Source: Spirochaetia bacterium
GTDB lineage: Bacteria; Spirochaetota; Spirochaetia; WTKD01; G963693115
DNA length: 64,000 bases
NCBI GenBank assembly: GCA_965226055.1
Contig: CBDDCA010000006.1
Coordinates: 448,001 to 512,000 of the forward strand
Direction: 5' to 3'
The notes below the pieces were generated by a model that saw only the letters and a list, made by a program, of their open reading frames with translations, made no database searches and was not told where the DNA came from. The position numbers were made by a program, and so were the translations under genes. This document shows positions 15,775 through 63,011 of the stretch, piece after piece. The stretch's first letter is position 1; the number at the start of each line of letters is the position of its first letter.

Positions 15775-16815
15775 TTATATTACCCCTAATATACTTTCTT
15801 CCACTTTTTTAATTTGCGCTCTATATAGCTGTAAAATATTTGTTCCATAATTGGCAATAAGCTGAATCATATTTCGTTGATTTGTACTTGTATCAACACC
15901 ATTTATTCTATCACCAGCATCTCCCAAACCAGGAAGAATATATGCCTTATCATTCATTGCTGGATCAACCCATAATGTGTATATATCTATATTGCTTTGG
16001 TATTGAAACACCTGTAAGGCTCCCTGTAAAGAAGTGATAATATGCAATAGTTTGACCGAACGAGGAGTGATATTATGTTGCTCAAAATATTTTAAGATAG
16101 TAAGAATACTTCCCCCTGTCGCATTCATAGGATCGGCAATAATCAAATCTTTGTCTTGTAAACTTGCTACATCAAAAAACGACTGCTTATCATTGAGTGC
16201 GTACTTGAGCGGCTGATCTTTATGCTCTACACGAGATATACGAAACAAAGCATAATCTGGCACATAGCCTTCTGATGAATATTCTTGAATTTCCTTTCCA
16301 ATAATAAGCGAGGGTAGCAAAGCTCCACGCAATAACACACACATGGTAGTATTATGGAGAGGTTTATCAAAGTTTGGAATTTTATGAACTGCATAATTTT
16401 GTATAGGATCGTTTACTGGAGTACTTATCACAAAGTTATTTTTTTGTTGCTTTATATTTTCGGCAAAGGCAAAAGAAAATAAAAATTCAAAAGCACGTTG
16501 CGTATAATACATAAACTCACTATTTTGTGTACGCATATCTCGTAACTTTGCCACCACTCGTGAAATAGGACCATGATTTTGCAATGGCTGATCAAAACTA
16601 TATACATGAATACGTTGTTTGTTTACAAGAAATTCTTGTAAACGATGCCCTATGCTATTGTAACTGGAAATTAAAAATGTCTTTCTTTCACTTTCATCTT
16701 TTATAGACTCTGCTTCTTGCAACATATGTACATATAAATCTTCAATTTCTTGCACTATTTTTTGATCATCATTGTGCAGTTTTTTTATGACTTCATGAGC
16801 ATTACATAAAAACAT
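15775..16815 (-). CDS. upp: Uracil phosphoribosyltransferase, long form
   Basis: IIADPMNATGGS PRPP loop and YILPGLGDAGDR. Confidence 0.85.
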   Translation of the reverse strand: MFLCNAHEVIKKLHNDDQKIVQEIEDLYVHMLQEAESIKDESERKTFLISSYNSIGHRLQEFLVNKQRIHVYSFDQPLQNHGPISRVVAKLRDMRTQNSEFMYYTQRAFEFLFSFAFAENIKQQKNNFVISTPVNDPIQNYAVHKIPNFDKPLHNTTMCVLLRGALLPSLIIGKEIQEYSSEGYVPDYALFRISRVEHKDQPLKYALNDKQSFFDVASLQDKDLIIADPMNATGGSILTILKYFEQHNITPRSVKLLHIITSLQGALQVFQYQSNIDIYTLWVDPAMNDKAYILPGLGDAGDRINGVDTSTNQRNMIQLIANYGTNILQLYRAQIKKVEESILGVI

Positions 16816-16835: not shown

Positions 16836-17276
16836 TTACTCTTTCTTATATAATCGATTCTTAAAAAGCAAGGCTTCAGGCAGTGATCGACAGAACATAA
16901 TATCATGTGCGTATAACCACAGTGTAGCTCCCTCATGATATACCTTGTACCATATAAATCCAATAGTTTCTTTACTTTGTTGTATTTCAGTATCATGTTC
17001 TATTACAGAAAGAATATCTCCTCTGCGAAATACCGCTTTCACACTTTTACTACTATCACGACTTGCAAAAGCACGTGCATATGTGTCTTTCACAAGAATA
17101 TGAGTATACTGTGTGTCAAACAACGAGGGAGAAATAAGATCAATAGATCGTGATTCTTGCTGTTGCATACAAGATAAAAATGCCATACTTATGAATGAGA
17201 GAAAGACAAAAGAAGCACTATAATACCGTATAAGAAAAAAAAATTGATATTGAGAATGCAGTGTCTTTATACTCAC
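16836..17276 (-). CDS. Hypothetical lipoprotein with SH3-like domain
   Basis: FLSC lipobox; RRGDILSV..WYKV..LWL resembles bacterial SH3. Confidence 0.55.
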   Translation of the reverse strand: MSIKTLHSQYQFFFLIRYYSASFVFLSFISMAFLSCMQQQESRSIDLISPSLFDTQYTHILVKDTYARAFASRDSSKSVKAVFRRGDILSVIEHDTEIQQSKETIGFIWYKVYHEGATLWLYAHDIMFCRSLPEALLFKNRLYKKE

Positions 17277-17332: not shown

Positions 17333-18805
17333 CTATATCTGTAATGTCTTGCCTTCTTGTATATGCTGAAATAATGCCTCTTTTGAAGCAAAAGGGAGTT
17401 CAATATTATACGCTTTTGCAATATGGGTAAGTCCTGATGATATGCTCTGCCCTGTTTCCAGTGCATGAGAAATTTCTTCAAACCCTGTGCGAATAGCCTT
17501 TTCTTTTTCCTTAAAGAAAGCATTGAATACCGTGAGCATTTCTTCTCTGTATTTTATTTCTTCTGCTTTTATTGCTGCACATATTGCTTCAATTCTTTTA
17601 CGTCTTTCTCTTGCAATATCCCGTGATTGTAATGCTTGTGTAAGCTGTCCATACCATGATGCAGATATCATAGAAGCAACAGTGCCTCCAATAAATCCTC
17701 CTACTATTGATCCTACAACAGGAATGGGAATAATTACAGTCCCAATAGCAGCACCAACAGTGCTTCCACACAATGTAGTTGCTAAAATATGCCCTTGTTT
17801 CCCAATATTTTTTACAAATTGTTCAGGGGTAATTTTTCCTGTTATGAGGCTAAATGTTTCTTTTGTGAGTATAAGCCCGCATTCAACAAGTACTATTGGT
17901 TTTTTTGCAAGCGATTTTAAGATATTATTATGGGATGATTTAAGCATTCCACCAACTACCGAAGCACCGCTTGCTTTTCCATAGGATGTAGCAGTAGAAA
18001 TTAGTGTATCTTTACCAGTATCGAAAAGAGCCTCATCTATATCTTTTGTGCCATCTCCCAGTGCTTTTATATTTCTAACAGCACTCACTGCCCCTCCTAT
18101 CATCGCCCCTCCCTTTGCTCCTTCCATTCCTGCTCTATGTGCTACTGATACTGTATCTCCTATAGTACTGAGGATAGGATGTTCTCTTGCAAACATAGCA
18201 TCATCAGTGGATGTCTTTGAATCAACAAGACGTGAATCTACATCTTTTATTTTTTGTATTTTATTTTTAATGCTCTGTATTTTATCTGGATTTTTTATTT
18301 TTTGAGATTCTATTTGTTGCTCAAGTTTACTTATTTGTTCTCTATTATCTTGACGAATTGCATCATATTGATCTTTTGGAACTTTAATATCTGTACCTTT
18401 ATACTTATCATAATTCTCATCATTATATAACTTACGATAATTTTTTTCTGTAAAAAAGTTTTTTTGTTGATATTTTTGTCCTGTAGTGCTAATAATATCT
18501 GCTTCGGGATTGTTATCATTGGTACGATGTATTCTTTCTGACTTTCCACCAATACTATTCTCTGCATTAACACGAGCTACTTCCTTTACCTCTGCAGAGA
18601 AACCAGCCTGTTGCTGTTTGTTTATTCTCTCATAATCAGGGTGTACTTTTGATTTGCTTATTTTTGCTAAGTCTGTATAGGACTGTATATGCTCTGCACT
18701 TGCCTCTGCAAATCGCTCCATTGTATGAGAAAGAGCAATATCAATCTCTCTGTTAAAGTTTCGTTCATGCTCTTTTTGTTTTTTCTTATCCAGTTGATAC
18801 GTCAT
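17333..18805 (-). CDS. Uncharacterised coiled-coil/glycine-zipper membrane protein with possible N-terminal PD-(D/E)xK-like (D..QxK) domain
   Basis: 490-aa ORF; GFSAE...NPEADII...YQQK; Gly-rich hydrophobic helices GAKGGAMIGGAVS and VGAAIGTVIIPIPVVGSIVGGFIGG; helical C-terminus. Confidence 0.7.
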   Translation of the reverse strand: MTYQLDKKKQKEHERNFNREIDIALSHTMERFAEASAEHIQSYTDLAKISKSKVHPDYERINKQQQAGFSAEVKEVARVNAENSIGGKSERIHRTNDNNPEADIISTTGQKYQQKNFFTEKNYRKLYNDENYDKYKGTDIKVPKDQYDAIRQDNREQISKLEQQIESQKIKNPDKIQSIKNKIQKIKDVDSRLVDSKTSTDDAMFAREHPILSTIGDTVSVAHRAGMEGAKGGAMIGGAVSAVRNIKALGDGTKDIDEALFDTGKDTLISTATSYGKASGASVVGGMLKSSHNNILKSLAKKPIVLVECGLILTKETFSLITGKITPEQFVKNIGKQGHILATTLCGSTVGAAIGTVIIPIPVVGSIVGGFIGGTVASMISASWYGQLTQALQSRDIARERRKRIEAICAAIKAEEIKYREEMLTVFNAFFKEKEKAIRTGFEEISHALETGQSISSGLTHIAKAYNIELPFASKEALFQHIQEGKTLQI

Positions 18806-18872
18806 AAAAATTTTTAATTTTTTATGATATAGATAGATATATTATATCTACTCTATATCATACATCCTGTCC

Positions 18873-19970
18873 TTATATTTTTGCTCCTGTCCATTTGCCT
18901 AATAAATCATGGATTTGAGATGCTCTCTCTTTCTCACTCATTTCATACTTACTATGATCAATCATCATCTTATGAATAAAATCATTATTCTTCTCTAGTA
19001 TTTCTGGCAACTGATATACAGGCTTTCCTTCTTCATCCATCAGCGGAGTATCTATAATCTTACGAAGCAACAAAGCACTATTTACTGTGTCAGTTATTAC
19101 CTTTAGTTCTTCATTTTCTAGCTCTAGTGTTTGAGGAGCACTTTCTACTTTATCAGCAATACGAGACATTTTTTTATTTTGCATATCAACAATAGCACTT
19201 ATATTCCTTATCACACTCATTGCCAACACCGAAAGTTTACTCATCATATCAAGCTGTTGTATAAGCGTCTTAACTTTTTCCACTATAGCATCAACTTTTT
19301 CTCTAAAACTTCGTGCTTCCTCCAACTTCTCTTCAGATTTTGCTTTTGCCATCCATGAGGTAAATATTGCTACAGGAGCGAGTGCTATGCCTCCCAATAC
19401 TACCATTCCTCCAATCACTCCAGCTCCTCCCGCTGCTATAGCCCCACCCCCCAACCACGCAAGTGTAGCATTCGTTGCGGCTGCTCCTGAGAGTGTCCCT
19501 ATCGCTGTACCAGTAGATGCCACCCCAATAATACCTGTTATTCCATATGCTCCCCCTGCAAGCGCTGCCCCTCCTAATGCTCCTCCTACCGCTGAAGTCA
19601 ATACATCTTCAGCTTGTATGGCCACTTGCTTTATTTCCTGCATATCCGTCTTAAATGTATCTTCATCGTATCCATCAACCTGCTTAAATAAGCTCCTATC
19701 CACTGCACCAATTTTTTCATAAATAGCACAAAAATTCTTTAATGAACTGGCATATGCAGTAAATTTTTCACGCCCAAGCTGTACTAAATGCTCATTCATT
19801 TCTTTCCTTTTTCTCTCTAAATCCTCTCTTGCTCTTTTGTCACGTTCTTTAGCATCAGCACATATACTATTTGCAATATCACTATTTTCCTTTGCTTCCA
19901 GACCATTTTTTGCAGTTGCAAATAGCCCTATTGCTGCAGCTCCTGCCCATATAAGTATTGGTATTGGCAT
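18873..19970 (-). CDS. Uncharacterised glycine-zipper membrane protein flanked by coiled coils
   Basis: 365 aa; RBS AGGAG; hydrophobic N-terminus; ~80-aa Gly/Ala hydrophobic core with LSGAAATNATLAWLGGG. Confidence 0.8.
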   Translation of the reverse strand: MPIPILIWAGAAAIGLFATAKNGLEAKENSDIANSICADAKERDKRAREDLERKRKEMNEHLVQLGREKFTAYASSLKNFCAIYEKIGAVDRSLFKQVDGYDEDTFKTDMQEIKQVAIQAEDVLTSAVGGALGGAALAGGAYGITGIIGVASTGTAIGTLSGAAATNATLAWLGGGAIAAGGAGVIGGMVVLGGIALAPVAIFTSWMAKAKSEEKLEEARSFREKVDAIVEKVKTLIQQLDMMSKLSVLAMSVIRNISAIVDMQNKKMSRIADKVESAPQTLELENEELKVITDTVNSALLLRKIIDTPLMDEEGKPVYQLPEILEKNNDFIHKMMIDHSKYEMSEKERASQIHDLLGKWTGAKI

Positions 19971-20038
19971 AATATCTCCTTTATTATGTAGTTTTATGTT
20001 TCTATACAGATAACAAAAACACTCTATTTTTCTGTATC

Positions 20039-20443
20039 TTATTTTCCAAAAATAAAATGAATTATCTTTGTTCGAAAGACAGAAAATTGCTCCATTATTT
20101 TTTCTATATCATGTAGCATGGTAGCTTTTTTCCCAAATGTTTCAGCAACATCAGCGATAAATTTTTTTTGATTATCATGGTACTGATTATTAGACAAAGC
20201 AGTTGCTATCAATTCAACAAGCACTACTTTCTGTTCTTCTTCCTTTGTAAATATTTCTTGCAACTTTGGGAGAGAGTTAGCAGATGGATGCTCATCGTGT
20301 AATCCCAGTACCATCTCAATACAAATAGAACGCAGATAGTACTCTTCTTTTTCATCTATAGCTCCATCGTCTACAAGCAAGACATGCTTAGCTAATCCTA
20401 AAAATACTTTTTTTTGTTCATATGATAAATTTTCTAAAAACAA
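20039..20443 (-). CDS. TerB-like small helical protein
   Basis: AGGAGG plus TTG start; duplicated TerB-type motif (LLVDDGAIDEKE / ALSNNQYHDNQKKFIADVAETFG). Confidence 0.65.
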   Translation of the reverse strand: MFLENLSYEQKKVFLGLAKHVLLVDDGAIDEKEEYYLRSICIEMVLGLHDEHPSANSLPKLQEIFTKEEEQKVVLVELIATALSNNQYHDNQKKFIADVAETFGKKATMLHDIEKIMEQFSVFRTKIIHFIFGK

Positions 20444-20594
20444 ACTATACCTCCTAAAAAATACTAGTAACAGTATATATATATATGCAAGTACTTTTCA
20501 CAAAAAAATTGCAAATTCTAATGAAAATGTAAGAAAATAAATGAAAAAAATTACAGTCTGATAAAAAGAAACTATCCTGTAATACTACAGTAAA

Positions 20595-31062: not shown

Positions 31063-31135
31063 CGGGGCATGGCCTAGTGGCTATGGCGCCTGCTTTGGGA
31101 GCAGGAGATCGCAGGTTCAAATCCTGCTGCCCCGA
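31063..31135 (+). tRNA. tRNA-Pro(TGG)
   Basis: CGGGGCA/TGCCCCG acceptor stem; anticodon arm CCTGC-TTTGGGA-GCAGG; GGTTCAAATCC T-arm. Confidence 0.96.
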
Positions 31136-31178
31136 TATATTTCGCCATGATATATGCTTTGCAAAAAGCATCCCTAAA

Positions 31179-31252
31179 GCACCCATAGCTCAGCTGGATA
31201 GAGCAACGGCCTTCTAAGCCGCAGGTCAGAGGTTCGAATCCTCTTGGGTGCG
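31179..31252 (+). tRNA. tRNA-Arg(TCT)
   Basis: GCACCCA/TGGGTGC acceptor stem; CGGC-CTTCTAA-GCCG anticodon arm; GGTTCGAATCC. Confidence 0.96.
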
Positions 31253-44911: not shown

Positions 44912-46747
44912 TTAATACACTATCTTTATATTATCTCTATTTGATATATTTAAGTTTAACCAATACTCTAAAGATATGTCACTATATCCATCAATGTAAA
45001 TCATTTTATCTTTCATATCCTCTACTATACTACTGCTTATATTACCTAGTACAAATATTGTATCATCGACACTATATAGGATGTCTTTTTCTTTCTCTTC
45101 GATAGTGCTGTGCAGAGGTTTGCCTGTAGCACATAGCATATTTATAAGTGTATGCATCGTGCTTGTACGGGCATGTTCTAATTGGAATATTTTGTTTTCA
45201 TCTTCAATAAGCTGTGGTTTAGGGGTAAGAGAAAACACTCTATAGCCTATATCCAGTGTATCTGCTTTTTTCTCTGCTTTTATTTTTTCTCCTGCACGAT
45301 GTAAGCGTTCTATAGTAATGCTGGAAATGACAGGCTTAAAGTTATTTTTTGTACAAAATGTATAGGCTTCACTCTTTTTCTTTTTGTCTATCTTTTCGTC
45401 CCACTGTACTAAAATAAATTTTCTATTGCCACCATCGTCAGCATTGAGTTGCATTACCGCATCGCCTGTAGTACCAGAGCCTGCGAAAAAGTCTAGGATG
45501 AGGTCGTTTTTGTTTGTAGCATGTTGTATCAAATTATAAATATATTCATAACCCTTTGGATAAGAAAAATATTCAGCTAAATCTAAATCTAATAAATTTT
45601 TGGTAGCTGTTTGATTCATAAATTGATTATCTATAAAAGCTAAACTATCCAAAGTCCTTTGGGCTGTACGCAATTGGTTCTTATATCGTTTATAGATAAA
45701 TCCTCGCTCATTTTTTTTATGCTCTTTTTTAAAAAGGATAGTACCGTTTTCTATATACTTTTGAATGGTGTTTTGTGTCCATATCCAATACCTACCTTTA
45801 GGAGGTAAATCAATTTTTTCTGTGTAAGGGTTTCTAATCTCAAAATAGTTTGTAGCATTGCCACTTTTTGCTGAAGGATCAGCACTTACCCAATCACTAT
45901 TAGGATCATTATCAGGATTTTTATAATTTGATAAATTTTTTTGTCTACCAAATAAATTAATTTCATTTTTACTTTTAGCATAAAGTAAACAATTTTCATG
46001 TTGGATATTTATACCTTCTTTTGCATCATTTGTAGTAGATTTTGTCTTACGAATTAGATCCATTATAAAGTTACTTTCTCCAAAAATTTCATCACATAGA
46101 ATTTTTAAGTTTGCTTGTTCGTTATCATCAATACTTATGAAAATAACACCATCCTCTGTAAGTAACTCTCTTGCAAGTTTCAAGCGTGGGTACATAAAGG
46201 CAAGCCATCCGCTATGGCTTTTTGTTCCATACACATTGTGTAAAAAATTGGTAGTATTTTCATCTAAACCAAAATTTTCAATCAATTCTTCTTCACTTTT
46301 CTTGAAATTATCATTATAGATAAAATTTTCACTTTTAGTATTATATGGTGGATCAATATAGATCATTTTTATTTTCCCAAAGTAGTTTTGTTTGAGTATT
46401 TTCAACACTTCTATATTATCACCGCGTATTACCACATTTCCTGTAGTATCAAATTGTTTGCTTTGATTGTGTTCTACTTGTAACTCATACTTCGTTTCAC
46501 TGCTTGCTTTTGCTTTCGCAATGCCTTTGCCTGCAAAGGTAAGCTCATAGCCTTTGTTGTTGGCTGTAGTATGTGAAATATCTATCACATCTTTCAGTGC
46601 TTCTATGTTTAGCTGTCCATCAGAACTTACTATCTCTGGAATGAGTTTTTTTAGCTTCTCTATTGTTTCGTTTTTGTGCGTACTTTGTGTATGTGTACTG
46701 TCTATCGTTGTTATTCCATGATGCTGTGCTTGTGCTTTATCTATCAT
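44912..46747 (-). CDS. mod: Type III R-M Mod-like adenine DNA methyltransferase with no adjacent res gene
   Basis: IRGDNIEVLK, IYIDPPYN (motif IV), HSGWLAFMYPRL, central TRD, DFFAGSGTTG (motif I), RKFILVQ. Confidence 0.9.
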   Translation of the reverse strand: MIDKAQAQHHGITTIDSTHTQSTHKNETIEKLKKLIPEIVSSDGQLNIEALKDVIDISHTTANNKGYELTFAGKGIAKAKASSETKYELQVEHNQSKQFDTTGNVVIRGDNIEVLKILKQNYFGKIKMIYIDPPYNTKSENFIYNDNFKKSEEELIENFGLDENTTNFLHNVYGTKSHSGWLAFMYPRLKLARELLTEDGVIFISIDDNEQANLKILCDEIFGESNFIMDLIRKTKSTTNDAKEGINIQHENCLLYAKSKNEINLFGRQKNLSNYKNPDNDPNSDWVSADPSAKSGNATNYFEIRNPYTEKIDLPPKGRYWIWTQNTIQKYIENGTILFKKEHKKNERGFIYKRYKNQLRTAQRTLDSLAFIDNQFMNQTATKNLLDLDLAEYFSYPKGYEYIYNLIQHATNKNDLILDFFAGSGTTGDAVMQLNADDGGNRKFILVQWDEKIDKKKKSEAYTFCTKNNFKPVISSITIERLHRAGEKIKAEKKADTLDIGYRVFSLTPKPQLIEDENKIFQLEHARTSTMHTLINMLCATGKPLHSTIEEKEKDILYSVDDTIFVLGNISSSIVEDMKDKMIYIDGYSDISLEYWLNLNISNRDNIKIVY

Positions 46748-49051: not shown

Positions 49052-52000
49052 CTAATACCAGCTAGGCGTTCCTCCAGCATTCTTAAACATATCAGTATTA
49101 GTAGCTGCTTTCACAGGAGTTTGCCAACTCGGTAAAGTTTGATTAAATGCACTCGCACTTTCAAACATACTTATAAAATCTGTTACTTTAGCAAGACCAT
49201 TGTTTTTTCCCCAATTATCAATATTCTGATTAAACTTAGTTGCTCCCTTAAACATATTATACATAGTAGTAACTTCACTTGTATCCCAGTTTGATATATT
49301 TTGATTAAAAGCAATCGCTTCATCAAACATCCAAGACATATCAGTAACGCTACTGGTAACCCATTTTGAAATATTCTGATTAAAAACTGTAGCATCTTCA
49401 AACATATGAGTCATTCTAGTTACCTTACTTACATCCCAATCTGATATATCTTTATTAAAAGCAGTAGCACCATGAAACATATGAGCCATCTTAGTTACCT
49501 TACTTACATTCCAACTACTTATATCTTTATTAAACACAGAAGCACCATCAAACATGTATTCCATAGTAGTAACTCTGCTCGTATCCCAATCTCCTATATC
49601 CTGATTAAAAGCAGTAGCACCATTAAACATATATTCCATAGTAGTAACTCTGCTCGTATCCCAATCTCCTATATCTTGGTTAAAAGAAGAAGCATAATCA
49701 AACATATTACTCATATCAGTAACGCTGCTTGTATCCCATTTACTAATATCCTGATTAAATAGAACAGCATCTTGAAATGTAGCTTCGAAATCAATAACAT
49801 TACTTACATCCCAATAAGAAATAGTACCATTAAATTTAGTCAAACTATTAAAAAGTGAGCTCATATTAGTAACTCCTGAAACATCCCATCCACTAATATC
49901 ACCATTAAAATCTGTATGAGCAGAAAATATACTACTTATATCTGTAATATTAGAATGTGAAACATCAATAACATTCAAATCTGCATTATTTCCCTGTGCA
50001 GTAATTTCAGTTTTTATATCCGCTATTAACTCATTTTTTGTAGTAGGAGAATGCTTATACGCATCCACAACCACTACCAATACAGTATGTGATCTTTTAT
50101 CATCAGTATAGGTATGTATAGTATTCTTACTCGAATCTTGACTTGTAAACTGTATGGTATATTCCTTATTCACTGTTTTTGTCGGAGTACCTGATATTTT
50201 TCCTGTTGCAGAATCAAAAGTAAGTCCTGTATCAGAAGCAAAAGTAGTAGGATTGATAGCAAAAGTACCTGTAATACTAGGACTTTTAGTAAAAGTAAGA
50301 GCAGTAATAGAACTATTTTTTTCTGCAGAAACAAGAGTCCTATTAGGAGTAATACTAAAGTACCAAGAAGGATAGACGGTAACTCCAGAATCTCTAAATA
50401 TATTAGTAATAACGGTAGAACGCATAAGAACCCAATTCTCAAGATTCTGATTAAACGCAATAGCATTACGAAACAGACTGTGCATAGTAGTAACTTTACT
50501 GGTATCCCAATCACCTATATTTTGATTAAACTTACTAGCACTAAAAAACATACCTTTCATAGTAGTAACCTTGCTGGTATCCCAATCTCCTATATCTTGA
50601 TTAAACACTACAGCTCCATCAAACATATTAGTCATATCAGTAACTTTACTCGTATCCCAATCTCCAATATCTTGATTAAAAACGCTTGCTCTATAGAACA
50701 TATAACTCATATCAATTACATTACTTGTGTCCCAATCTCCTATATCTTTATTAAAAACCCTTGCTACACTAAATAACCTACTCATAGTAGTAACCTTACT
50801 GGTATCCCATTTAGATACATCACCATTAAAAGTAGCATTATCCTTAAACAACTCACTCATATCAGTAATTCTACTGGTATCTATCACATTAAGATTAGCA
50901 GTGTTTCCTTGTGCAGTAATCTCAGTAGCAATAGCAGTTTGTAATTCTGATTTATTAGCAGGCTTATGTTTATAATCACTCGAAACAGAAATAGTTATTG
51001 TTCTATCAGAATCAGTATACTCATGGATAACATTCCCATCAGCATCTTTACTAGTAAAGGTTATAGTATAAGAAGTACTGGTTGTTACATTAACAGCAGT
51101 ACCTGAAATAGTACCAGTAGTAGTATCAAAAGACAATCCTGTATTAGTTATATCTGGTGTAATACTAAAACTTCCTGCTATAGTAGGTTTTTTAGTAAGT
51201 AATACTCTCTCATTACTTACAAGAGGAAAGTGCATATACGCAGTAAGAGTAGTTTTGTTAGTAGTGACACTAAAATACCAAGTAGGAAGTGTTACTACCC
51301 CAGAATCACTAAACATATCAATTTTTGCAACACTCTTTTTCACATTCCAAGTCTCAAGATTTTGATTAAATGCAGTAGCTCCCTTAAACATATTTGTCAT
51401 AGCAGTAACTTTACTTACGCTCCAACTTGAAATATCCTGATTAAAAGCAACCGCATCCTCAAACATACCTCTCATAACAGTAACATTTGCGGTGTTCCAG
51501 TTCCCTATATTTTGATTAAAGTTTGTAGCACCCGCAAACATACTGCCCATAAAAGTAACAGAACCTATACTCCAATTCCCTATATTCTGATTAAATGCAG
51601 TAGCCTCATTAAACATTTTTGACATAGCAGTAACTTCACTTGTATCCCAATTCCCTATATCCTGATTAAATGCAGTAGCTCCCTTAAACATTTTTAACAT
51701 ATCAGTAACTTCACTTGTGTCCCAATTCCCTATATCTTGATTAAAAGCAACAGCATCCTCAAACATACTGTTCATAGTAGATACTGCACTTGTGTCCCAA
51801 CTACCAATATTCTGATTAAATACACTTGCTCCTTTGAACATAGATTCCATAGTAATAAGAACATTAAATCCTGGAGTACTCCCTAAGTTCTCACCTATTT
51901 TCCAAGTGGTAATATCCCCATTAAACGCTACCGCATCAGTAAACATCTCATTAAATCGTGAAACTTTAGAGACATCCCAGTTACTCAACGATTGATTAAA

Positions 52001-55000
52001 AGCAGAAGCACCCTTAAACACTTTACTCATAGTAGTAACAGCACTCACATCCCAATCATTTATGCTCCCATTAAACTTACTTGCATTCTCAAACATACTT
52101 TGCATAGTAGTAACCTTACTGGTATCCCATTTTGATATATCACCATTAAAAGTAGCATTACCCCTAAATACATCTCTCATATCAGTAATTCTACTGGTAT
52201 CTATCATATTAAGATTAGCGGTATTTCCTTGTGCAGTAATTTCTGCACTTATATTTTGTAATAACTTACTTTTAGTATCAGGCTTGTGTTTGTAATCAAT
52301 AGTAATAGTGATTGTTTTACTTCTCTCACTATCAGCATAGGTATGTGCAGGCGAAGTACTCGAAAATTGTACTGTATACGCCTTATTAGATACAATTTTA
52401 CTCGGAGTTCCTGATATTTTCCCTGTTGCAGTATCAAACTGTAACCCCGTATCAGTAGTAAAAGTAGTAGGAGTTATCTTAAATGTACCAGCTATATCAG
52501 GTGACTTAGTAAAAGTAATCTCTTTTGATTTAGGTAAGGTACTATAAACAGTATGAGTAATACTATTAGCACTTGCAGTAATACTAAAATACCACGTAGG
52601 AAGTGTTACTACTTTCGTGTTATTAAACATATCAGTTTTTGTGACACTACTACTGCCTAGATGATCTTTCCAATCTTCCAAATCTTGAGTAAACTTAGTA
52701 GCTCCCTTAAACATATTACTCATATCGGTTACTGCACTTAGTTCCCAATCAGAAATATCTTGATTAAATGCACTTGCTTGATAAAACATACCACTCATAT
52801 CAGTTACTTTTCTTACATCCCACTGAGATACCATACCAGCAAAAACAGTATTTCCCTTAAACATATCACTCATATCAGTTACTTTAGAAGTATTCCAACT
52901 TGATATATCTCCATTAAATTTGTGTAATCCATTCGCAAATGTAAAAATACCTCCCATATCAGAAACACCACTGGTATCAATACTATTTAAGTCTGCATCC
53001 AACACATCATTACTACTATCATTATCATTTGTTTTTGTTATCTCTTTTATTGCTTCTATCAACTTTGCTTTTGTAGTAGGAGTATAAGTATACCCACTTA
53101 TAATGGTAAGATAAAACTCTTTTGTAACGGTCTTAGTACCAGTAAAAGTAAGCGTATATTTCTTTTTAGATAATACATTATTAAGAGTACCTGAAATACC
53201 ACCATCAACAGAAGAGAATACCATACCTGTGTCAGTAGTAATATTAGGTGATATTTGATAGGTACCTTTCATACTATATGTTTTTACTGCTTCATTTTCT
53301 ACTACAAATGTGGCAGACTTTGTTGTAAGTCTATTCAACACAAAAGGGCCATCAACAACAGTAGTGTCTCTACTTTTTTGATACACTACTGAAATATCAT
53401 ATTTCCAAGAGGGTAAATTAGCACTGGTTATCTTAGTAGCATTCTTAAAGATACTACTAGTAACAATAGCTCTATCACCAAAATGATCCTTCCAATCTTC
53501 CAAATCTACAGAAAATGCCACTGCTCCTTGAAACATACGTGACACATTCTCTACTTTATCTACTGCCCAAATTGATATATCTTGATTAAATGCGGTAGCG
53601 TTCAAAAACATAGAATGCATATAAATACCACTCAACACACTCCATGTAGATATATTTTGATTAAAACTACTTGCATCTGCAAACATACTACTAAAATTAG
53701 TTACTTTTCCTACCTTCCAACTTGATATATCGCTATTAAACTTTGTTGCACCTGAAAACATAGCTGACATATCAGTGACATTACTTACATCCCAATTTGA
53801 TATATCACCATTAAAATTACTAAAAAGGCTATCTGAAAAAAGATCACTCATATCCGTAATATTACTGGTATCAATACCAGTTAAATCTGGATCGTTTACA
53901 TCAGCGTTGCCATCACCATCAGTATCTACTAATGATCGTATCAACTTCAACAGTCCTGATTTTGATTTAGGAGCAGTAGTAGAATCAACAATAGACAATG
54001 ATACTGTAACCACCCTATCTTTATTTACATCACCTGCTAATGCAAAATCACCATTTCCTGTAAAAATAACTGAAATAGACAAAGTTCCTGAAGTAATTGA
54101 TTTTGTAGCACCAGGAACAGCCAAAAAGATACCATCAGTAGTATTCAAACTTACTCCCGCAGGTAAGGTACTCTTAGAAGTATCAATTCTATATGTTCCT
54201 GTCGCATATGCAGGATATTTTACAATAGGAACACTAAATCCTTCTCCTACTAACTTTGTAATAACAGTATTTCCAAATGTTACCTTTTTTGTATACCACG
54301 CTGGCAATTCTTTTGCATTATCACAAGCAGGAGTAACAGTAAGATCTAAACAAGATCCAGCAAACATAGTTTCTTTATCTGTTTTTTCCATTTCTAATAG
54401 TTTCTTTACAGAGTTAAGAGATATATCCCATATATCTAAAGACTGATTGAATTTTTTAGCATTTTTGAACATATTCTTAAATGCTACCGACTGTACTTTT
54501 TTTACATTCCATTTAGAAATATCCTGATTAAATATACTCGCTCCTTCAAACATACTTGTCATATCAGTGACTTCACTTGTATTCCAGTCTGATATATCAC
54601 CATTAAATGCTATACTCCCTTCAAACATATTTGCCATAGAAGTAATAGTTTTTGTCTTCCATTTTGATATATCGCTGTTAAACTTTGTTGCACTCTTAAA
54701 CATACCTGACATATCAGTAACTTTCTCTGTATTCCACTTTGATATATCACCATTAAACTTTGTTGCTCCTTCAAACATACCTGACATATCAGTAACTTTC
54801 TCTGTATTCCACTTTGATATATCATAATCAGAATTAGGATATTTCTTAAATAAATCACTCATATCAGTAATTTTTCTTGTATCTATATCATTAAGATTTA
54901 CTTTCTCTTTTGAATTCTTAAGTCTACTAGCAAGTAAGCTATCTAACTCTGATCGTGTAGAAGGGACAGTATTAACACTAGGCAGTACAGTGTTTTCATC

Positions 55001-55096
55001 ACTACTAGAAGAAGTATCTTCCGCACAACTAAACACCAGCAATGTAGTAAACATAACTAAAAAATAAAACATAAAATATGAATTTTTTGTTTTCAT
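49052..55096 (-). CDS. Giant DUF285/BspA-type repeat surface lipoprotein with interspersed Ig-like domains
   Basis: AAGGAG plus MKTKNSY..LVFSC lipobox (start reassigned from 55162); many 25-aa [20 protein letters not shown] repeats; GL.FD..TG.ISGT Ig-like spacers. Confidence 0.92.
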
Positions 55097-55261
55097 ATAA
55101 AAGCTCCTTGTATATATATAAAAAGTAAAAGGTATATCGTATAAAATCTCCCACGTATACAATATGTGTATGAGTATAATTATAAAAAAAGATAATTAAA
55201 CTATACAAATGATATAATAGTCAACTTCAAACAATTTTCAATACAGCAAAAAAAGAAAAAT

Positions 55262-61724: not shown

Positions 61725-63011
61725 ATGCAGAATACAATTCTGGTAAAGAAGAAACAATTTATAGAAATTCCCATTGATTATATTTGGTCATTTTCAGACA
61801 AAACAGTAAGAGATACTTCATACATTACCCATGGTTATTATACATATCCAGCAAAATTTATTCCACAATTAGCATCTCGCCTTATTAGAGAATATAGCAG
61901 AGAAAATGAGGTAGTTATTGATCCATTTATGGGTTGTGGAACTACTGTCATAGAATCTATTATAAATAACAGAATAGGAATTGGTACAGATATAAATGAA
62001 ATTGCTTTTTTAGTATCAAAAGCAAAAACAACCCCTATACAAAATTCTGAATTAGTAAAAACTTTAAGCACAATAGAACAACAATCGTATACTTATTCTA
62101 AAACAGATATAGAAAGCGTTATACCTCCTAATGAAAGAATTGATTACTGGTTTCTTCCTGAACAAAAAGAGAGAATAGCAAGTATATTCATACAAATTAA
62201 GGATATAAAAAACCATGACATTAGAGATTTTTTTTTAGTAGCACTTGCTCAAATACTAAAATCTTGCTCTATATGGTTACAAAAAAGCATTAAGCCAACA
62301 AGAGATAGGAATAAAGAAATATATGATCCATTAACTTTATTTTTAAAGCAATCGAAAAAGATGATAAAAAAACATTTTGAATTTGAAAATATGCTTAGTA
62401 GAAAAATATGGAAAAATATTGATAAGCATAGAATAATACAATGTGCAGATTCAAGAAAGCTTCCTTGTAGAGATGAAAAAGCAAGTCTTGTATTAACAAG
62501 CCCACCTTATGTAACATCATACGAATATGCTGATTTACACCAGCTACCTTTGTTATGGTTTGGACATTTAACTGAGTTAAGTGATTTTCGAAAAAAATTT
62601 ATTGGAAGTTCTTATAAAAAGAGTAATAGTATAGATATAAAAAGTTCTATTGGTAATGAAATTATTCTGAGTCTAAGCAAAACTTCAAAAAGCGAAAAAG
62701 TAAAAACTTATTTTTGCGATATGATAGAATCTTTTTTGGAAATGAAACGTGTCTTGAAAGTAGGAGGGAAAGCGTGTATTGTGATTGGAAATACAGAATT
62801 CAAGGGGATAAAAATTCTAAATGCGGAAGTATTTCAAGAACAATTACAAAATATAGGCTTTAAGACTCATAAAATAATTCATCGAGAAATACCATCTAAA
62901 ATGTTACCATCAACAAGAGATGCAAAAACAGGACAGTTTGCAAAAACGACAGATAAATCACTGAAATTAGCATATCCTACTGAATATATATTAATCATGG
63001 AGAAATTATGA
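61725..63011 (+). CDS. N4-cytosine-type DNA methyltransferase of a type II R-M system
   Basis: THGYYTYPAKFIPQL, DPFMGCGTT (motif I), TSPPY (motif IV). Confidence 0.9.
   Translation: MQNTILVKKKQFIEIPIDYIWSFSDKTVRDTSYITHGYYTYPAKFIPQLASRLIREYSRENEVVIDPFMGCGTTVIESIINNRIGIGTDINEIAFLVSKAKTTPIQNSELVKTLSTIEQQSYTYSKTDIESVIPPNERIDYWFLPEQKERIASIFIQIKDIKNHDIRDFFLVALAQILKSCSIWLQKSIKPTRDRNKEIYDPLTLFLKQSKKMIKKHFEFENMLSRKIWKNIDKHRIIQCADSRKLPCRDEKASLVLTSPPYVTSYEYADLHQLPLLWFGHLTELSDFRKKFIGSSYKKSNSIDIKSSIGNEIILSLSKTSKSEKVKTYFCDMIESFLEMKRVLKVGGKACIVIGNTEFKGIKILNAEVFQEQLQNIGFKTHKIIHREIPSKMLPSTRDAKTGQFAKTTDKSLKLAYPTEYILIMEKL

Follow-up and report, generated by a model that had tools for sequence, protein, structure and literature searches.

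A three-gene membrane module in a Spirochaetia bacterium, probably a divergent member of the PDC-M09 phage defence family with the architecture of Dionysus

Three adjacent genes of a spirochaete raise the question of what kind of system they encode and whether that system has been described. They lie on the minus strand of a 64,000-nucleotide (nt) stretch of a Spirochaetia bacterium (contig CBDDCA010000006.1 of assembly GCA_965226055.1, positions 448,001 to 512,000), here called the window, and appear in its list of open reading frames (ORFs) as g1 (20443..20039; 134 amino acids (aa), TTG start), g2 (19970..18873; 365 aa) and g3 (18805..17333; 490 aa). A preliminary description, made from the letters and the ORF list, had seen a co-oriented three-gene unit with gaps of about 68 base pairs, and the gaps are indeed 68 nt between g1 and g2 and 67 nt between g2 and g3, all three genes having the same orientation. 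It had also presented the unit as undescribed and matching no named system. This view has to be given up, because PADLOC models PDC-M09A and PDC-M09B match g2 and g3 and the three-gene architecture is that of Dionysus, so that the unit does match a described system. Among the roles first proposed (phage defence, envelope stress and antagonism), phage defence is the best reading. The three genes probably constitute an anti-phage module of the PDC-M09 family, whose three-gene form matches Dionysus, here in a permuted gene order and in a divergent clade.

The PADLOC search suggested in the preliminary description yielded matches for two of the three proteins. The g2 protein matches two PDC-M09A models, PDLC04407 (E 3.3e-26, 90.4 bits) and PDLC04406 (E 5.1e-24), and the g3 protein matches two PDC-M09B models, PDLC04409 (E 3.6e-16, 56.8 bits) and PDLC04408 (E 3.3e-15), as judged by E-value and bit score and not by PADLOC's per-model cut-offs. 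Residues 34-267 of g2 align with positions 18-250 of the 282 of the PDC-M09A profile and residues 30-431 of g3 with positions 31-433 of the 480 of the PDC-M09B profile, and the likeness extends to the two window genes being adjacent, co-oriented and 67 nt apart. PDC-M09 differs in being a two-gene candidate, the TerB-like gene not being among its two models. The phage defence candidates (PDC), 145 in all, come from a "guilt-by-embedding" screen, in which genes lying inside BREX, DISARM and type I restriction-modification (RM) loci were taken as leads, and were subsequently added to PADLOC (10.1101/2024.01.29.577857). A full-text literature search for "PDC-M09" returned a mere listing as a candidate in Streptococcus thermophilus.

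The three-gene form corresponds to Dionysus (DinA/DinB/DinC) from Pseudomonas aeruginosa, which is reported to protect against phiKZ-like jumbo phages more than 10^6-fold (bioRxiv 10.1101/2025.09.30.679545). In the text of this preprint, DinA is described as having a "MAEBL-like" region and a transmembrane domain, DinB as TerB-like, and DinC as a helical, "pore-forming-toxin-like" protein with four transmembrane segments that is said to resemble Hbl, Nhe and ClyA. All three genes are needed, DinB and DinC being essential, and the H326A substitution in DinA weakens protection. Cells carrying the system show no propidium-iodide uptake at 90 min and are viable 2 h post infection, early phage infection vesicles and phage nuclei are not seen, DinA and DinC form foci at the infection site, and in an AlphaFold 3 prediction DinC binds the C-terminus of DinA (10.1101/2025.09.30.679545). 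The instances given are 312 in Gammaproteobacteria and 49 in Betaproteobacteria (10.1101/2025.09.30.679545), and a 2026 review restates the findings (PMC13282480).

The window unit encodes the same three kinds of protein, g3 being DinA-like, g1 DinB-like and g2 DinC-like: a protein of about 500-570 aa that has a membrane segment and a middle part that is helical and rich in K/E, a TerB-like protein, and a helical protein with a long apolar stretch. The apolar stretch of g2 fits the four transmembrane segments of DinC, and that of g3 fits the transmembrane domain of DinA. There are also clear differences. The window order is TerB-like, DinC-like, DinA-like (B-C-A), whereas that of Dionysus is dinA-dinB-dinC; the window copy belongs to a separate clade from the loci with the order g3-g1-g2; its TerB-like protein has 134 aa, compared with 180-320 aa in those loci; and Dionysus is reported in the preprint text from Gamma- and Betaproteobacteria only, whereas relatives of the window family span at least ten phyla.

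Homologues in P. aeruginosa itself provide a more direct comparison. This species has two g3-family proteins, P0257 and P0298, and BLASTP of the window g3 against P0257 gives E 8e-50 with 29% identity over nearly the whole length. On the g3 tree, the two P. aeruginosa proteins and one from P. putida fall in a clade of 7-8 rows (approximate likelihood-ratio support, SH-aLRT, 98) that includes loci of Billgrantia, Alicycliphilus and Budvicia with the order g3-g1-g2, which is that of dinA-dinB-dinC. The counterpart of the window residue H223 in the P. aeruginosa homologues is His 312 and His 296, as compared with H326 of DinA in the preprint. Membership in the Dionysus family is well supported, though not proven, by the shared architecture and by this homology.

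To follow the recurrence of the unit, the g2 alignment was run against one genome of each species, where 595 stretches matched and 477 of them encoded a relative; the best 80 loci were kept, their ORFs were called, and these were searched first with the three window proteins and afterwards by iterated hidden Markov models (HMMs). The conservation of the triplet, which the preliminary description had named as a check, is borne out: of the 80 loci, 72 have a g3-family gene in company with g2, 44 have a TerB-like gene and 41 have all three genes. With the single window sequences as queries, all three were recovered in 15 loci, g2 and g3 in 40, g1 and g2 in 2, and g2 only in 23. The gene orders are g3-g1-g2 (24 loci), g3-g2 (16), g1-g2-g3 (14), g2-g3 (10), g2 alone (5), g2-g2-g3 (4), g1-g2 (3) and four other orders found once each, these counts including several loci that are short contigs ending near the match, nine "g3" matches that are proteins of 130-143 aa with the Gly-zipper part only, and one locus (L049) in which the "g3" match is a BnzB-like protein about 3.7 kb off. 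The recurrence of the triplet or pair (72/80 loci) is far beyond chance, and g1, g2 and g3 are one unit. Relatives of the module occur in free-living and gut bacteria of at least ten phyla, and the genes flanking it in the window have no relatives in any of the 80 loci, for which reason the module is regarded as a self-contained unit, one that passes from one context and phylum to another.

The short g3 variant (130-143 aa) comprises the Gly-zipper part and the following helix, without the N-terminal domain described below. It was seen in L014, L015, L026, L028, L029, L030, L047, L055 and L074, mainly in Campylobacterota and Acinetobacter, and the loci with this variant group together on the g2 tree. 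In a Treponema metagenome-assembled genome (MAG; L038:7865-10316), g2 is broken into two ORFs and so is g3, probably by frameshifts or in a decaying copy.

Phylogenetic trees were constructed for g2 (77 rows, quick IQ-TREE) and g3 (59 rows). On the g2 tree the window sequence is placed in a clade of nine rows (SH-aLRT 100, stem branch 0.98) together with sequences from Treponema, Spirochaetaceae, Victivallis, Lentisphaeria, Sulfurimonas, a Gracilibacteria MAG, an unclassified MAG and Cupriavidus, in which the gene order is mostly g1-g2-g3; all 24 loci with the order g3-g1-g2 are found in another clade of 47 rows (SH-aLRT 95). The window g3 clusters with the same partners (10 rows, SH-aLRT 100), indicating co-inheritance of the pair. 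The copies of a Gracilibacteria MAG (L001) and a Sulfurimonas MAG (L002) are near-identical, with g2 end branches of 0.023 each, which suggests a very recent transfer or a binning error. The patchy distribution across phyla and the incongruent trees fit mobile defence genes.

The smallest protein, g1, is a TerB-like protein as first described. Its own score against Pfam TerB (PF05099) is sub-threshold (19.9 bits, E 9.6e-4; gathering score 24.4), and it is nevertheless assigned to TerB because the members of its family and the family profile match: 28 of 36 g1-family members match PF05099 at E<=0.01 (best E 4.3e-10), and the profile matches the TerB structures 2ou3_A (6.8e-9) and 2jxu_A (1.7e-6) in the PDB. 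Relatives of g1 likewise start with MFL. A hydropathy script identified no apolar segment in g1, which by its sequence would be a cytoplasmic TerB-like protein. TerB-domain proteins with partner proteins are also described in Bunzi (BnzA/BnzB) and Shango (SngA/B/C) (10.1101/2025.09.30.679545). The comparison with Shango made earlier does not hold for the window, whose unit lacks both the helicase and the ATPase of that system; nor do the three window proteins match any Bnz or Sng model at E<=1.

The DinA-like protein, g3, was modelled with AlphaFold2 (AF2) at a mean predicted local distance difference test score (pLDDT) of 76.1 and a predicted template modelling score (pTM) of 0.65. An N-terminal alpha/beta domain is followed by a helical middle, in which the conserved H223 lies, by a Gly-zipper hairpin and by a C-terminus that is again helical. 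Relatives numbered 207 at E<=1e-3 among 8000 scored; the Pfam family PF26373 is present in some of them, and g3 itself has no match above cut-off in Pfam or NCBIfam. The hydropathy script located a 47-residue apolar Gly-zipper stretch at residues 340-386 (17648..17788, minus strand), a probable two-pass hairpin, with a pLDDT below 50 and a weak, below-cut-off match to Pfam Gly-zipper_Omp (E 1.1e-3). G373 within it is kept in 285 of 291 relatives, counts of this kind referring to a set of 291 distinct sequences of the g3 family, all 400 aa or longer. H223 is the most conserved His of the family (264/291).

The N-terminal domain of g3 (residues 30-200; 18206..18718, minus strand), delimited from the model and from conservation, contains the conserved residues E72, N80, D103, Q113-x-K115 and Y135. 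E72 is found in 278 of the 291 relatives, D103 in 279 (with Glu in a further 4), Q113 in 276, K115 in 279 and Y135 in 288. DSSP assignment of the AF2 model gives helices 56-85 and 120-134 and strands 92-94, 104-106, 111-114 and 139-142, with pLDDT mostly above 90; helix 56-85 contains E72, D103 immediately precedes strand 104-106, and strand 111-114 contains Q113, with K115 right after it. The domain is thus predicted to have an alpha-beta-beta-beta-alpha-beta core carrying E/D/QxK, a statement on how the elements follow one another and where the residues lie, and not on three-dimensional geometry. This order of elements and this placement of E/D/QxK are canonical for PD-(D/E)xK enzymes, which the g3 domain resembles in both respects; it differs in having Gln for the usual acidic residue. 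The part of the preliminary description that recognized a nuclease-like motif in g3 therefore stands as far as the motif is concerned, kept in about 95% of the 291 proteins and set in a predicted core, and falls short as to the nuclease itself, for which no fold or profile match was found. Foldseek with full-length g3 gave no match at E<=1e-3 in the PDB (312 at E<=10) or in BFVD, and no nuclease; the domain profile searched against PDB sequences gave coiled-coil noise only (best E 0.081); and the domain has no Pfam or NCBIfam match. Nor does the description of Dionysus, as far as covered here, mention a nuclease-like domain of DinA.

The profile of the g3 domain matched 616 representatives at E<=1e-3 among 1.84 billion (373 at 1e-10 and 256 at 1e-30), nearly always at the N-terminus of proteins of about 500-580 aa. 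Its sole outside link is to the C-terminus of YeeR, an inner-membrane protein of the CP4-44 prophage of Escherichia coli K-12, to which, to our knowledge, no function has been assigned. A feature search of the Atlas with the domain returned clusters with YeeR_C (Pfam 38.1) in 18-23% of members, and a search with the domain core among the named Atlas clusters, YeeR_C left out, gave no usable match. The g3 domain and the YeeR C-terminus share a G..Q.K..(Y)..VP.DQY stretch (hhalign 75.8%, E 2.3e-5, 57 columns). Unlike in YeeR, however, the domain stands at the opposite end of g3, it aligns by its second half only, and yeeR (L081:8780-10312) adjoins flu and yeeS and has no g1 or g2 relatives beside it.

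The AF2 model of the DinC-like protein g2 (mean pLDDT 73.4, pTM 0.71) shows confident long helices at residues 5-88, 103-129 and 212-277. Between them, the hydropathy and composition script delimited an 86-residue Gly/Ala-rich apolar stretch at residues 123-208 (19347..19604, minus strand), which has no charged or strongly polar residues, is of a length that suits about four membrane passes, and has a pLDDT below 50. The invariant columns of the g2 family, A151..G188 in 37 sequences, fall within this stretch, and LSGAAATNATLAWLGGG belongs to the invariant signature. Both models, together with hydropathy (123-208 in g2 and 340-386 in g3), accord with the earlier statement that g2 and g3 are helical membrane proteins with Gly-rich apolar segments. 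Residues 1-20 of g2 (window 19911-19970) are also apolar (MPIPIL...), as in more distant g2 relatives; the closest relatives start instead with a polar MGFLR..NF.TFG motif. Relatives of g2 numbered 5281 at E<=1e-3 among 8000 scored, and no Pfam or NCBIfam family matched g2 at E<=1 beyond noise.

The kinship of g2 with ClyA, Hbl and YaxAB that had been proposed is not sustained by these searches. In Foldseek searches of the PDB with the single models, neither g2 nor g3 matched a restriction endonuclease or a pore former at E<=1e-3, and g2 had no match of any kind at this threshold. The ClyA pore protomer 6mrt_A ranks fourth in the g2 list with a non-significant E of 0.12 (prob 0.95, TM-scores 0.31/0.39), 2wcd_A has E 0.46, and axonemal coiled-coil proteins score similarly to ClyA. 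Two further relationships were considered and rejected. A paralogous origin of g2 and g3, as for toxin subunits, had an hhalign probability of 2%, and kinship of g2 with the dynamin-like protein that adjoins its relative in L049 had one of 0.3%, despite a weak match of g2 to PADLOC LeoBC (3.1e-7).

From these features the following mode of action may be envisaged. The g2 and g3 proteins would reside in the cytoplasmic membrane by their Gly-rich apolar segments and act together, and the cytoplasmic g1 would be an accessory sensor or regulator, the term accessory being used because g1 is absent from about half of the related loci. On infection, the g2-g3 membrane pair may act at the site of phage entry, by analogy with Dionysus, in which the early infection vesicle of jumbo phages is lost and the host is not lysed. 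The N-terminal E/D/QxK domain of g3 would face the cytoplasm and is the best candidate for recognizing or attacking incoming phage material. A different use of the same parts would be abortive infection, in which g2, with g3, behaves like a holin or a membrane effector of CBASS, Pycsar or retrons and opens the host's cytoplasmic membrane on a phage signal, with g1 restraining it. The 86-residue apolar region between long helices would suit such an effector, the ClyA protomer appears in its Foldseek list, though without significance, and the authors of Dionysus initially proposed this model (10.1101/2025.09.30.679545). The exclusion of dye at 90 min and the survival of Dionysus cells at 2 h, however, argue against a pore in the host membrane, to the extent that the window module behaves alike, and g2 has no significant fold match to any pore former in the PDB. 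Abortive infection is accordingly considered improbable, although it is the alternative that survives best.

The genes around the module were compared in 33 loci, namely 36 with at least 5 kb on each side minus L073, L075 and L076; near genes were defined as the two nearest ORFs on each side, and PADLOC matches were accepted at E<=1e-10. Among the near genes, 26 of 132 proteins, in 20 loci, match PADLOC models, and these include WYL (11 loci), TerY with PP2C, type I, II and IV restriction genes, LmuA, JukA, LeoA/LeoBC, a PD-T4-6-like kinase and two PDC models. In a far control of 149 proteins drawn at random from 206 farther ORFs of the same loci, 18 match, including LmuB, LmuC, JetD, AbiH, QatD, BnzB, PDC-S01, PDC-S14 and five WYL proteins. 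As a background, 6 of the 40 other proteins of the window match at the same threshold, four of them generic cross-matches (a protease, LacZ and two ABC ATPases) and two methyltransferases. WYL regulators occur within two genes of the module in L009, L016, L019, L020, L024, L027, L031, L032, L054, L059 and L062 (11/33) and farther off in L003, L027, L044 and L059; WYL and WCX domains were confirmed by Pfam in both regulators tested. WYL-WCX regulators are known from the control of BREX and CBASS. Known systems, complete or in part, also occur nearby: Lamassu LmuA/B/C in L027, a type II RM pair in L028, TerY-PP2C-kinase in L007 and JukA in L060. The idea that a further conserved gene stands between the module and its WYL regulator was rejected, since the three small ORFs tested are mutually unrelated.

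Several of the results nevertheless weigh against an anti-phage, Dionysus-like assignment of the window genes. The rate of PADLOC matches does not differ significantly between near and far genes (Fisher p 0.10 for any match and 0.12 for WYL), and the near rate of 26/132 is not clearly above the window background of 6/40. As these rates are alike, the defence-island argument rests on the kinds of neighbours and not on their number; the enrichment in defence islands anticipated in the preliminary description thus appears in the kinds (WYL-WCX regulators and known systems) and not in the raw rate. The window module itself has no defence genes within 20 kb and no WYL regulator, its surroundings being metabolic. 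PDC-M09 is itself a candidate system only. The likeness to the cloned Dionysus is drawn from architecture and from P. aeruginosa homologues, the text of the preprint giving no accession; the window g3 is 29% identical to P0257 and lacks most of its long K/E/A-rich insert, and residue 326 is not His in the P. aeruginosa homologues, which have His at 298 and 312 and at 282 and 296. As to mobility, tblastn found no copy among 50,697 phage records, and among 72,556 plasmid records two were matched by g2 and two by a g3 homologue from one of the loci. With these points taken into account, the module is most likely an anti-phage system, the window copy being a divergent member of the family already catalogued as PDC-M09 and, in its three-gene form, described and tested as Dionysus.

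Some of the same observations could be accommodated by a role in envelope stress, in which the genes would form a TerB-linked unit of membrane maintenance or repair, comparable to Ter/TelA/PspA or dynamin-like proteins, that rides on mobile DNA. TerB domains stem from a tellurite and stress cassette (10.1101/2025.09.30.679545), the window copy is set among metabolic genes, and the raw PADLOC match rate near the module is not above background. In the Selenomonadaceae MAG locus L049, moreover, the g2 relative adjoins two dynamin-family GTPases and lies downstream of an XpaC-like gene. On the other side, the homologous architecture of Dionysus gave strong and specific protection against phages (10.1101/2025.09.30.679545), WYL-WCX regulators and known defence systems recur beside the module, and its patchy distribution across phyla, incongruent trees and near-identical copies in Gracilibacteria and Sulfurimonas speak for mobile defence genes. 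The envelope-stress role is rated slightly below abortive infection and is likewise improbable. A secreted two-component alpha-pore-forming toxin of the ClyA, Hbl/Nhe or YaxAB type, aimed at other cells, is very unlikely, as the helix, apolar hairpin, helix layout of g2 and the non-significant ClyA and AhlB chains in the Foldseek lists (E 0.12 and 4.5) are opposed by the lack of any Pfam or NCBIfam toxin family match for g2 or g3, by apolar regions of 86 and 47 residues that look like permanent membrane anchors, by the absence of secretion genes nearby in the window, by the occurrence of the family in free-living and gut bacteria of many phyla, and by g2 and g3 not being detectably paralogous (hhalign 2%), the subunits of multi-component toxins of this kind being paralogous.

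The locus L049 (7983-14009) is of interest in its own right. Its g2 relative is followed directly by the two GTPases, which match PADLOC LeoBC (E 6.9e-75) and LeoA (E 1.5e-77) and Pfam MMR_HSR1 and Dynamin_N; a BnzB-like protein (Bunzi, E 4.6e-125) follows the GTPases, and the XpaC-like gene is upstream. The g3 HMM picked up the BnzB-like protein (E 1e-32), and hhalign gives it a weak alignment (probability 33%) to the last 170 residues of the g3 family. Parts of Eleos, Bunzi and PDC-M09 seem to be combined in this locus.

The location of the unit between a upp region and a sugar operon, as first described, is correct: a protein with a uracil phosphoribosyltransferase (UPRTase) domain is encoded on one side, and LacZ with a sugar ABC transporter on the other. 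The metabolic flanks further comprise a TRAP transporter, a transketolase and an EamA transporter. The UPRTase-domain protein matches PF14681 (E 3e-24); its gene, the "upp" of 15775-16815 (-), encodes 346 aa, of which the best UPRTase match spans residues 218-304 only, the product having a long N-terminal extension relative to the 206-position Pfam model. Just 3' of g3, after 56 nt, is an ORF of 146 aa (16836-17276, minus strand) whose N-terminus is hydrophobic up to a lipobox-like FLSC; searches of Pfam and PADLOC gave no match for it, and none of the 80 loci contains a relative. The TTG start of g1 is preceded by a Shine-Dalgarno sequence AGGAGG at 20455-20450 with a spacing of 6 nt. This sequence and a promoter-like site (20501..20472) are located in the 151 nt that separate g1 from the upstream lacZ (20444..20594, minus strand). 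Promoter-like sites in the region are not above the shuffled expectation (17 found against 18.3), and neither are terminator-like sites (1 against 1.7); a separate promoter for g1-g2-g3 may be supposed from a promoter-like match that is at chance level. The G+C content of the region is 0.30-0.41, and the unit is not distinct from its flanks.

Elsewhere in the window, the sole plausible defence genes are a type III-like DNA methyltransferase (44912-46747, minus strand; PADLOC E 7.7e-152) and a type II-like methyltransferase (61725-63011, plus strand; PADLOC E 9e-54), both more than 24 kb from the module. An ORF of 2036 aa is located at 49052-55162, and the Rfam matches in the window are two tRNA genes only (31063-31252, plus strand).

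For the window the gain is mainly in annotation: standing alone among metabolic genes, there is a divergent copy of a defence system whose type is already known. For the family, the module links the PADLOC candidate PDC-M09 to the experimentally supported Dionysus, and its many phyla and gene orders, together with the forms that lack TerB or have a truncated g3, suggest a system far more widespread and varied than reported. A bolder reading, tentative and itself unlikely, is that the DinA-like g3 is a membrane-tethered nuclease, or a DNA sensor derived from one, with a very divergent PD-(D/E)xK fold, in a pan-bacterial system that would "perforate and cut". If this were true, the DinC-like partner would breach the phage entry compartment and the tethered g3 domain would attack the phage DNA so exposed, the TerB subunit would be optional, and the module would represent an entry-site defence of bacteria at large, including Spirochaetota, Bacillota, Bacteroidota, Campylobacterota and candidate phyla, and not a proteobacterial speciality against jumbo phages. 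The breadth of the family, the optional TerB and the near-invariant E/D/QxK domain of the DinA-like protein go beyond the published account, as far as this was covered here, and the E/D/QxK domain provides a concrete handle on the mechanism of the module.

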